A DNA stretch of 1,903 nucleotides from Escherichia coli (GTDB taxonomy: Bacteria > Pseudomonadota > Gammaproteobacteria > Enterobacterales > Enterobacteriaceae): NCBI RefSeq assembly GCF_003334255.1, contig NZ_QOWU01000143.1. One strand, written 5' to 3'. Every line of letters begins with the position of its first letter. Within the stretch, counting starts at the first letter, position 1. The notes beneath the pieces were generated by a model. It did no database searches. It was given only the letters and a program-made list of their open reading frames with translations, and was not told the origin of the DNA. Of this stretch, positions 304-1,903 are shown piece after piece. The position numbers were made by a program, and so were the translations under genes.

Positions 304-1071
304 TCACTCCACCATGACCCGGACCTGACGTCCGTTCACCCGGAACGAGGCTTCTCCCCGTCCGGCACGCTCAAGCATCCAGCCGGCCGTGCTCTCCCCT
401 TCACCCAGCAGCGTCACATCTGAAAGACGGGTAAATCCACGGGGAGCCACCGCAGCATATGTGCGTCCGCCACGCTGCTCCGTGCCTGTCAGCACAAACG
501 GTGCGCTGCGGCTGATAACTGAAATGCCGGAAGAGCCCTTTTTCTGGCGTGGCGTGACCGCCGGTGTGCTCTTCACCGTGCCCGTTCCTTTCGCAGATGA
601 CGGTGATACCGGGGTGAATGGCGCCTTCTCCAGCTTCTCCAGTCGCAGGTCATACGCACGAAGCGTTTCTCCCTGCTGCGCCAGCGTGGCCTGCAGTGAT
701 GCCAGGCTGGCGGCCATCTGACCAGTGCGTGCATGCTCTTCCTCCGTCAGTACAGGTCGTTGCTCCAGCAATGTCAGTCGCTCCGTCACGCTTTTCAGCT
801 GTTTTTTGGTTTCAGCCAGCCGGGACCTGAGCGGTTCAAGCTCACTTCCCGACAACGCGAGAGCATCTGAATACGTTTTCATTTGCCCCTCCAGTGCGGC
901 AATGCGTTCATCCTGCTCCCCGCTGTAACGATAGAGGCCGCAAACCGCCAGAATGGTCGCAACCAGAACGGTCAGTACAAATCCCACGGAAAGCATGGGT
1001 GACACACAGGTCCACCCATCAAGAGGAGATGAATGCACTGACGGTAATGTCTTCTGTTTTTTTTCACTCAT
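304..1071 (-). CDS. Bitopic membrane protein (255 aa): short cytoplasmic N-terminus, one TM helix, long coiled-coil region, Ser/Thr/Pro-rich linker, small C-terminal domain. Family unassigned.
   Basis: ORF 304..1071 (-). Start ATG 1071-1069 overlaps the upstream stop (ATGA); SD GGAG lies 8 nt upstream inside the lipoprotein gene. Lys-rich N-terminus MSEKKQK, then a single hydrophobic segment PMLSVGFVLTVLVATILAVCGLY (about residues 25-47, nt ~931-999). Residues ~52-140 are Leu/Ala/Glu/Lys/Gln-rich with heptad-like spacing, ending in LRLEKLEK. Linker PFTPVSPSSAKGTGTVKSTPAVTPRQKKGSSG, then a ~70-aa C-terminal domain. Confidence 0.8.
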   Translation of the reverse strand: MSEKKQKTLPSVHSSPLDGWTCVSPMLSVGFVLTVLVATILAVCGLYRYSGEQDERIAALEGQMKTYSDALALSGSELEPLRSRLAETKKQLKSVTERLTLLEQRPVLTEEEHARTGQMAASLASLQATLAQQGETLRAYDLRLEKLEKAPFTPVSPSSAKGTGTVKSTPAVTPRQKKGSSGISVISRSAPFVLTGTEQRGGRTYAAVAPRGFTRLSDVTLLGEGESTAGWMLERAGRGEASFRVNGRQVRVMVE

Positions 1072-1646
1072 TTTTTAAGCTCCGCTCCTGCGCCCCTGAC
1101 ACCGGCCGGTACCGGCGCCAGCTGGCCCGGCGGCAACTGATAACCTTCCCGCAGGCTGTGACAGACAACCCGCTGCACATCATCAACTTCAAGTTGCCAC
1201 GCCGGACCGGCCATCATCTGCAGGGCGGTACGCAACCTGAGCGGCCCCGTCTGATACTGCACTGCCGGCAACGCCTGACGATAAAGCACCCCGTTGGCCG
1301 GTCCGGTGGCACAGAGCGTGTAGCCCGACTGTTTCAGGGCATAACGCATCGCATCTGCCACCGTCGGCTTCAGGGATGCCGGAATACGGATGTCAATCAC
1401 CTGGGAAAGGGGATCCCGCTGTACCGCATCCGGATGAGTGTTAACCAGCAGATAGCGGTCATAACGCACCACCTCGGGCACAGTCGTCCCAGCGTACATA
1501 TCAGGGCTGGCCGGACGGACATTATTGCTGACCGTCACCGACGGTACCGGAACAGCCGCATCCCGCTGCAGCAGTTTTTGCTGCCCCTGACAGCCAGTCA
1601 GAAGTACGCAGGCGGACAGCACGGAAAGAAGAAGGGATGTTTTCAT
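1068..1646 (-). CDS. Predicted lipoprotein (192 aa), probably outer-membrane sorted; first gene of a three-gene envelope operon. A conjugation/pilus-associated role (PilL/TraV/VirB7/DotD-like) is hypothesis only.
   Basis: ORF 1068..1646 (-). ATG at 1646-1644 is preceded by SD GAGGT (1656-1660) with 9-nt spacing. N-terminus MKTSLLLSVLSACVLLTG-C has a positive n-region, hydrophobic core and lipobox L-T-G-C with Cys19 (codon 1590-1592); Gln at +2, so no Asp inner-membrane retention signal. Pro/Gly/Ala-rich C-terminal tail (QLPPGQLAPVPAGVRGAGAELKK). Composition is protein-like, unlike the R/H/C-rich antisense frame. Stop TGA overlaps the next start (ATGA at 1068-1071). Confidence 0.8.
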   Translation of the reverse strand: MKTSLLLSVLSACVLLTGCQGQQKLLQRDAAVPVPSVTVSNNVRPASPDMYAGTTVPEVVRYDRYLLVNTHPDAVQRDPLSQVIDIRIPASLKPTVADAMRYALKQSGYTLCATGPANGVLYRQALPAVQYQTGPLRLRTALQMMAGPAWQLEVDDVQRVVCHSLREGYQLPPGQLAPVPAGVRGAGAELKK

Positions 1647-1740: not shown

Positions 1741-1768
1741 AAAAAAAACGCCTGCACAAGGCAGGCGT
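1741..1768 (-). terminator. Rho-independent (intrinsic) terminator for the upstream minus-strand gene
   Basis: On minus-strand RNA: GC-rich 7-bp stem (1761-1767 pairs with 1749-1755; GCAGGCG/CGCCUGC), 5-nt loop (1756-1760), then immediately U8 (complement of the A8 run at 1741-1748). The plus-strand side has no downstream U-tract, so it is unidirectional. Confidence 0.6.
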
Positions 1769-1799: not shown

Positions 1800-1903
1800 T
1801 CAGTCCTGATTTAGCGCACCATTACGCTGCACCGGGACGTAATCCAGAGCCTGCAGCAACTGCTCATCTGTCAGATCCAGAAAATCTTTGATTTCCTCCA
1901 GAG
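1800..1903 (-). CDS. 3' end of an upstream CDS (partial; 5' end outside the window), product unknown
   Basis: Minus-strand frame is open from the window edge (1903) to TGA at 1802-1800 and encodes ...LEEIKDFLDLTDEQLLQALDYVPVQRNGALNQD*. An intrinsic terminator follows ~32 nt downstream on the same strand. Only 34 codons are visible and there is no start in the window, so the coding call rests on open frame plus terminator placement. Confidence 0.4.
   Translation of the reverse strand, partial: LEEIKDFLDLTDEQLLQALDYVPVQRNGALNQD

Follow-up and report, generated by a model that had tools for sequence, protein, structure and literature searches.

Gene 2 of an integrative conjugative element (ICE) of the PFGI-1/SPI-7 class in Escherichia coli begins with a run of eight adenines (A8) in its codons 3-5, and the length of this run was found to vary among public assemblies. 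The gene was studied in a 1,903-nucleotide stretch of E. coli DNA (contig NZ_QOWU01000143.1), which we refer to as the window, where its start overlaps the end of the pilL2 gene. A8 is by far the predominant allele, seven adenines (A7) and nine adenines (A9) recur at low frequency on independent haplotypes, and the run is broken in the two sister clades of the gene. We consider it likely that the A8 run is a lineage-specific by-product of lysine codons placed in an A-rich translation start, and that it behaves as an ordinary homopolymer hot spot and not as an evolved switch.

Open reading frame (ORF) calls place three co-directional genes on the minus strand of the window. On the plus strand, a T8 run (1057-1064) and a T6 run (1071-1076) are separated by CACTCA. 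Read on the minus strand, the junction of the first two genes is CTT-AAAAAA-TGAGTG-AAAAAAAA-CAG, and contains the following features:

1646-1068, minus strand: gene 1, pilL2, 192 amino acids (aa), with the lipobox LLTGC and a C-terminus ending ELKK*
1071-304, minus strand: gene 2, a 255-aa bitopic membrane protein starting with MSEKKQK
1085-1089, minus strand: a second AGGAG, read from the sequence
1080-1083, minus strand: a Shine-Dalgarno (SD)-like GGAG that lies within the end of pilL2 and 8 nt ahead of the ATG of gene 2
1071-1076, minus strand: the A6 run, invariant in length, which holds the two Lys codons that close pilL2, forms the A-rich spacer from SD to ATG, and supplies the A of the gene 2 ATG
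1068-1071, minus strand: the ATGA stop/start overlap between the pilL2 TGA and the gene 2 ATG
1065-1067, minus strand: a GTG that is in frame with the body of gene 2 at A9 or A6, and is the annotated start in an A9 isolate
1057-1064, minus strand: the A8 run within GAA AAA AAA, codons 3-5 (Glu-Lys-Lys) of gene 2, an indel hot spot with A7, A8, and A9 in public assemblies
994-996, minus strand: the Met26 ATG, start of a 230-aa ORF annotated by gene callers in A7 isolates

An earlier reading of this DNA, made from its letters alone (the sequence-only reading), had given the sequence and coordinates of the junction and the ATGA overlap; it had also placed A8 in the Glu-Lys-Lys codons 3-5 and A6 at the end of gene 1, supplying the A of the ATG. 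All of this agrees with the sequence and the ORF calls. It had further taken both runs to be prone to slippage and had proposed a comparison of tract length across isolates. This held for A8, which is not invariant, since A7 and A9 were seen on independent haplotypes at what is the sole indel site, but not for A6, which was six nucleotides long in 47 of 47 loci.

Length alleles of the A8 run and their products

Among 18 closely related complete E. coli genomes 17 carried A8 and one, SCU-171, carried A7; in the latter the Prokaryotic Genome Annotation Pipeline (PGAP) calls a 230-aa protein from Met26. Contigs were also found through an identical PilL2, a sampling that is blind to the state of gene 2, and one more A7 was present among the 24 contigs read in this way. 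Larger numbers were obtained by exact-sequence searches for the proteins expected from each tract length, after which the underlying DNA was fetched. The 255-aa protein of the window was found on 938 contigs and other full-length alleles starting at the ATG on 747, 583, 102, 54, 41, 20, 20, and fewer contigs, while the Met26-type 230-aa product, a 244-aa product, and a 254-aa product starting with MKKKQ together accounted for a few dozen contigs. A8 was thereby assigned to approximately 98.6% of about 2,565 public E. coli contigs (about 2,500 with A8), these frequencies being contig counts in which clonal relatives and duplicate assemblies of the same isolates are mixed. The variants seen in the fetched DNA were about 31 A7 contigs and three to four A9 contigs, or approximately 1% of the assemblies.

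The variants did not descend from a single event. In a table of single-nucleotide polymorphisms (SNPs) at 33 loci, A7 occurred on at least four haplotypes, namely the SCU-171 type (20 contigs), the haplotype of the window itself, the P0129 type, and a variant with GGGG as its SD, and A9 on at least two. Across the 1.3 kb over which the 33 loci were aligned, no internal indel site other than the A8 run was present. For the SCU-171-type haplotype 20 contigs had A7 and one had A8, as would be expected of a stable mutation, inactivating or tolerated, more than of rapid toggling.

Not every shortened product reflects a changed tract. Several of the contigs behind such products (P0126) were in fact A8 and merely cut off upstream. 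In the GGGG-SD lineage, nine independent contigs from metagenomes or Logan (L025-L033) all end 31-115 nt upstream of the tract, within the final ~100 nt of pilL2, and gene callers pick Met26 on these contigs despite their A8; the assembly graph may break here because ICE variants have recombined at this boundary. A variable-gap pattern scan of JGI metagenome contigs returned three loci, all A8, which is too few for frequencies. The exact look-ups gave no match for the products of A6 type (253 aa) and A11 type (256 aa), nor for frameshift peptides 31-33 aa long. Short frameshift ORFs are probably not called by annotation, and their absence from the look-ups therefore says little.

The sequence-only reading had expected a change of one nucleotide in either direction to truncate the protein after a few residues while leaving the lipoprotein intact. 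The reading frame is indeed lost from the ATG, and pilL2 is untouched by changes in A8 length. The products are, however, a 32-aa peptide for A7, with its stop at 972-974, 20 nt past the Met26 ATG, and a 17-aa product for A9. Nor does the +1 change simply truncate, because A9 (or A6) brings the GTG at 1067-1065 into frame to give MKKKQKTL..., which is 254 aa long with A9; one A9 isolate is annotated by PGAP with exactly this GTG-start protein (WP_438401713.1). In clade C of the gene family the serine codon is AGC, so that the GTG is not conserved, and we therefore treat the rescue as a coincidence. Neither shifted frame holds a long ORF, as they close after 17 and 32 codons.

Judged from the ORF, a 230-aa product from Met26 would retain the transmembrane (TM) helix and all that follows. 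A7 and A9 alleles may thus not all be null. A small hairpin, CCCATG-CTTTC-CGTGGG (983-999, minus strand), contains the Met26 ATG and is a weak match to a terminator pattern; it could hinder internal initiation in A7 alleles. Frameshift alleles appear under three annotation outcomes, 230 aa (Met26), 244 aa (GTG at Val12), and 254 aa (GTG at 1067-1065). For users of these annotations the practical point is that the site is a recurrent source of frameshifts in approximately 1% of assemblies, and that one widespread ICE lineage carries A7.

Sister clades, control runs, and the spelling of the start

The gene 2 family comprises, besides the clade of the window (clade A, 98-100% identical within the clade), two clades that share its gene order, ATGA overlap, and A6. 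Clade B (73% identical; 36 complete genomes, many from poultry), which is chicken-associated and may be ICEEc2-like, starts with MSEKQQ (GAAAAGCAA). Clade C (41% identical), common in E. coli and Salmonella, starts with MSEQQE (GAACAACAG). The A8 is broken in both, by GAA AAG CAA in clade B and GAA CAA CAG in clade C, and is thus confined to clade A. Homologues that break the run were what the sequence-only reading had named as the outcome that would speak against its proposal. In distant homologues of gene 2 the N-termini are variable.

The other elements of the junction behave differently. All three clades keep A6, ATGA, and GGAG, even where protein identity falls to 41%, with the SD reading GGAG or GGGAGG in clades B and C and GGGG in one lineage. 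This conservation fits a translational-coupling junction, and we infer that gene 2 is probably coupled to pilL2 at this site. An A6 longer by one or shorter by two nucleotides would fuse pilL2 and gene 2 in frame (447 or 446 aa), and one shorter by one nucleotide would only change the end of PilL2 from KK to KNE; 0 of 47 loci carry an A6 variant.

We compared the variability of the tract with that of other runs of eight in the same ICE. The non-coding control was the T8 of an intrinsic terminator:

1741-1768, minus strand: intrinsic terminator upstream of pilL2, with a GC hairpin (1768-1748) followed by T8 (1748-1741)

Only this pilL2-proximal copy of the terminator was used, and a second copy was excluded. 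At 14 loci not selected on gene 2 the gene 2 tract was A8 in 13 and A7 in one, while the terminator was T8 in 12 and T9 in two, the T8/T9 state following the haplotype. The coding control was an A8 in the STY4528-family replication gene, for which the product of a -1 change was found on one contig against 399 with the wild type (0.25%). On the haplotype of the window 9 of 947 gene 2 contigs were variant (0.95%), compared to 1 of 400 for the coding control (Fisher p = 0.30). In these samples the non-coding T8 and the second coding A8 appear to vary at rates comparable to that of the gene 2 tract.

Runs of this length are more frequent than composition predicts. Two A8/T8 runs are present in the window where 0.01 are expected from dinucleotide-preserving shuffles, and six are present in 32 kb of the same element where 0.81 are expected, four of them inside coding sequences. 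The A8 of gene 2 is therefore non-random relative to composition, yet it is not the only such run in the element. The ICE coding sequences of E. coli STEC2018-553 contain three further 8-nt A/T runs (L001 423-430, 8387-8394, and 23725-23732), and a -1 allele of the last of these was present on one public contig. The density of 8-nt A/T runs is about 1 per 5 kb in the element, against 1 per 16 kb reported for the chromosome of S. Typhimurium LT2.

Codon usage in the ICE offers a simple source for the run. Codons 2-11 of ICE genes are 51% AT compared to 45% elsewhere. AAA makes up 58% of Lys codons in the ICE and 20 of 29 within the first ten codons; Lys-Lys pairs are written AAA AAA in 12 of 24 cases, and Glu-Lys-Lys is written GAA AAA AAA in two of four. 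The computed energy for opening the start region is 4.1 kcal/mol with A8, 4.2 kcal/mol with GAA AAG AAA, and 9.4 kcal/mol with GAG AAG AAG. According to this calculation A-richness would aid the accessibility of the start, and the unbroken run would add nothing. The lysines themselves may be needed: on the cytoplasmic side of the TM helix, clade A has no basic residues other than K4, K5, and K7, whereas clades B and C have a cluster of Arg and Lys beside the TM helix instead. From this distribution K4, K5, and K7 are candidates for a positive-inside signal.

These observations suggest the following origin. A6 would be the conserved part of the coupling site, forming both the Lys-Lys end of PilL2 and the spacer between SD and ATG, with the start embedded in A-rich, weakly structured RNA. 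Given a need for the start M-S-E-K-K-Q-K, ordinary codon usage and an AT-rich 5' end would make GAA AAA AAA the default spelling. Clade A being young, there may have been little time for a synonymous interruption of the run. Replication slippage at the eight adenines would then yield A7, with its 32-aa peptide and a possible weak restart at Met26, and A9, with the GTG start and 254 aa. Such alleles may persist at approximately 1% because ICE transfer genes would be under weak selection during vertical inheritance of the element. In E. coli longer runs bring an exponential rise in the indel rate (PMC8510543), 294 A/T 8-mers are present in S. Typhimurium LT2 and 12.3% of such loci were mutated (PMC8538453), and mononucleotide runs are generally selected against and not for (PMC1378130).

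Several points weigh against the by-product explanation. On one and the same haplotype the tract has repeatedly both gained and lost a base. The point estimate for the gene 2 tract (0.95%) exceeds that for the coding control (0.25%), the difference not being significant. The frequencies are rough, since they are drawn from mixed clonal relatives and duplicate assemblies. Finally, a synonymous change from AAA to AAG would remove the hot spot without a folding cost, yet it has not occurred; this weighs little because clade A, at 98-100% identity, is very young.

Contingency switching, recoding, and sequencing error as alternatives

The alternative that survives best is that A8 is a true contingency locus, at which cells alternate reversibly between a full-length protein (A8), an N-terminally altered one made from the GTG (A9 and A6), and an off or truncated state (A7). 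The benefit could be cheaper expression of transfer genes, or escape from phages that target the pilus or the type IV secretion system (T4SS). We regard this as improbable. Independent -1 and +1 events do recur, both on one identical haplotype and on others, and at the only indel site of the region, but the tract is no more than comparable in variability to the non-coding T8 and not significantly above the second coding A8. That A9 and A6 restore the frame through the GTG, with the product annotated in an isolate, speaks for such a locus, yet the GTG is not conserved, the Ser codon of clade C being AGC. The A7 lineage is widely spread, its 20 contigs coming from isolates and metagenomes, but its haplotype looks fixed at 20 versus 1.

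The run also resembles contingency loci in being a simple repeat inside a reading frame whose length is polymorphic among close relatives, including the identical haplotype of the window. A situation in which ON and OFF lengths are both common and the repeat is kept across homologues was not found among the approximately 2,565 contigs or in clades B and C: A8 is present in approximately 98.6% of the contigs, and the sister clades lack the run despite the same gene order and nearly the same N-terminus. In the element of the window, the gene that follows gene 2 is already destroyed by IS421. The background rate of slippage for 8-nt runs in mismatch-repair-proficient E. coli is about 1e-6 per generation or less. 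For enterobacteria, eight A/T in a row is nothing unusual, LT2 having 294 such runs (PMC8538453). The phase-variable ON/OFF switching put forward by the sequence-only reading is thus not upheld by the preponderance of A8, the haplotype near-fixed for A7, the broken run of the sister clades, and the comparable controls.

A more specific form of the idea, which we hold to be somewhat less probable still, is that A8 is a three-state switch that silences or retunes a GspC/PilP-like connector of the ICE. A8 would give the native form, A9 or A6 a GTG-start form with an altered cytoplasmic tip, and A7 an off state or a weak Met26 form. Such a switch would, for example, avoid the cost of transfer or attack by apparatus-targeting phages. 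Classical contingency loci are few in E. coli, and a real switch would be a rare case in this species of phase variation by simple sequence repeats (SSRs) acting on the transfer of a conjugative element.

It is very unlikely that A8 is a programmed recoding site, where transcriptional slippage or -1 ribosomal frameshifting on A_AAA_AAA would give a further protein or adjust how much of gene 2 is made. Within GAA AAA AAA, the heptamer A AAA AAA in the zero frame is formally an X_XXY_YYZ slippery sequence, but it lies three codons past initiation, no downstream stimulatory structure was seen, and the alternative frames close after 17 (-1 frame) and 32 codons, so that there is no second product. 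E. coli RNA polymerase (RNAP) makes some insertions on A7, and A8 stands at the threshold of detectable slippage; the insertions on an A7 tract amounted to only 0.39%, however, slippage on poly(A) shorter than 8 was undetectable, and the enzyme barely slips on A8 (PMC6260861). A survey of bacterial slippage sites used runs of nine (9A/9T) together with conservation of run length among homologues (PMC1088944), whereas the present run has eight bases and its length is not conserved. The transcriptional or ribosomal slippage also suggested by the sequence-only reading accordingly finds no support in the closed frames or in the behavior of the polymerase.

Sequencing or assembly errors in an invariant tract, which might have been suspected because the A7 cases found first, SCU-171 and a contig of 5.4 Mb, came from long-read-style assemblies, were rejected as the source of A7 and A9 and are highly improbable: A7 recurs in many short-contig NCBI drafts, including short-read assemblies, as well as in ENA metagenomes and in Logan assemblies built from independent runs, and it is common to 20 contigs of one SNP-defined haplotype. 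SCU-171 differed from an A8 element over 30 kb by zero other 1-nt indels inside coding regions, for which reason its A7 is not assembly noise. The several assembly sources and this clean comparison together indicate that the A7 and A9 alleles are real and not homopolymer miscalls.

The conjugative element, the gene 2 protein, and related systems

The window is part of the mating-pair-formation (MPF) operon of a PFGI-1/SPI-7-class ICE in E. coli. PilL2 matches TIGR03748 ("PFGI-1 class ICE element type IV pilus protein PilL2") with 128 bits over residues 60-162, against a curated NCBIfam cut-off of 64.15. E. coli STEC2018-553 is 100% identical to the window from 77 to 1903, and there the genes of the window belong to a complete SPI-7/PFGI-1-type ICE with TraD, a conjugative ATPase, TIGR0374x-5x transfer genes, ParB, and an island helicase. 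Downstream of gene 2 the window contains:

299-66, minus strand: gene 3, an ORF holding the first 77 codons of a TIGR03759-family ICE gene, cut by IS421
1-76: the end of a copy of the insertion sequence IS421 (IS4 family), inserted in the TIGR03759-family gene directly downstream of gene 2

The junction of IS421 and gene 3 was found in 0 of 5,426 complete E. coli genomes. With gene 3 cut and the junction in no complete genome, the ICE copy in the window is probably already transfer-defective. In a search of a plasmid collection with the window, the IS421 end was the sole match.

Several repeats were noted elsewhere in the element. Among relatives, the terminator that precedes pilL2 ends in T8 or T9 (L001 16665-16672). 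A second, near-identical copy, which has T7 (L001 17107-17113), follows the next gene, some 440 nt further upstream. The copy number of a 12-nt unit (TCTCCAGACCTT) varies inside small "transposase" genes upstream of pilL2 (L001 16897 and 17327; L050 20795-21629). One such gene, whose 3' end corresponds to window positions 1800-1903, is duplicated in SCU-171. Upstream of the STY4528-family replication gene there are iteron-like tandem repeats with a unit of about 36 bp, in a block of about 235 bp in STEC2018-553 (L001 23062-23296) compared to about 1 kb in SCU-171 (L050 27676-28718).

The gene 2 protein opens with a 25-aa N-terminal tail and a TM helix (about residues 27-46), after which come a long coiled coil, a linker rich in Pro, Ser, and Thr, and a C-terminal beta domain. 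An AlphaFold2 prediction has the tail followed by one long helix from residue 25, comprising the TM segment and the coiled coil, then a disordered linker and, at the C-terminus, a domain of six strands. When 1.84 billion representative proteins were searched, 200 relatives of 200-300 aa with a common conserved C-terminal block were found. The family is unannotated and often mislabelled "Tat signal sequence" or "metallopeptidase". Gene 2 had no Pfam match at E <= 0.001, with only scattered coiled-coil matches among 61 aligned homologues; NCBIfam gave only weak coiled-coil matches far below the cut-offs, PHROGs gave none, and the sequence matches in the PDB were coiled-coil noise.

The predicted C-terminal domain is similar in fold to solved HR and PilP domains, and the model thus assigns it a GspC-HR/PilP/DotF-like fold. 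As GspC-HR/PilP-like domains tie inner-membrane components to secretins or core complexes, gene 2 probably encodes an envelope-spanning connector of the transfer or pilus apparatus of the ICE; no secretin partner for it was identified in the ICE. Tfc2 of ICEHin1056 was considered as a counterpart and was not equated with gene 2, as Tfc2 has been grouped with a TraV-like protein (PMC4027160). The fold finding may outlast the tract result in use, as it gives a testable structural role to a conserved gene of the MPF-G (ICEHin1056/PFGI-1/SPI-7) transfer system.

Gene 2 and its tract can be compared with several known systems. The HR domain of GspC, the C-terminal domain of PilP, and DotF are beta domains that bind secretins or core complexes, a function to which gene 2 is tentatively linked by its predicted fold. 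Unlike these, gene 2 has no sequence-family match in Pfam, NCBIfam, or the PDB, and it has a long coiled coil where GspC has a linker and a PDZ domain. With translationally coupled overlapping genes the junction shares the four-base ATGA overlap, a GGAG 8 nt upstream inside the upstream gene, and an A-rich start of low structure, the coupling being read here from conserved sequence features.

With programmed transcriptional slippage sites, as in insertion sequence transposases, Thermus dnaX, and Shigella mxiE (PMC1088944), the tract has in common a poly-A run in a coding sequence. It differs from them in having eight bases and not at least nine, in the unconserved length, and in the lack of an extended ORF in another frame. 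The likeness to SSR contingency loci (Haemophilus, Neisseria, and Campylobacter, and the poly-G of rmp in Klebsiella) is closer, with a mononucleotide run just past the start codon, frameshifts of plus or minus one, and length alleles that coexist among close relatives. Here, however, there are only eight adenines, a single length accounts for approximately 98.6%, the run is broken in sister clades, and the variability is indistinguishable from that of control runs in the same element.

Homopolymer-driven pseudogenization in Enterobacteriaceae (PMC8538453; PMC8510543) likewise involves an A/T 8-run near the 5' end of an ORF and sporadic frameshifts that become fixed in some lineages. The gene 2 tract departs from it in that +1 and -2 changes can be rescued by a fortuitous in-frame GTG, and in that a -1 change leaves a Met26 ORF with the TM helix and the periplasmic domains.

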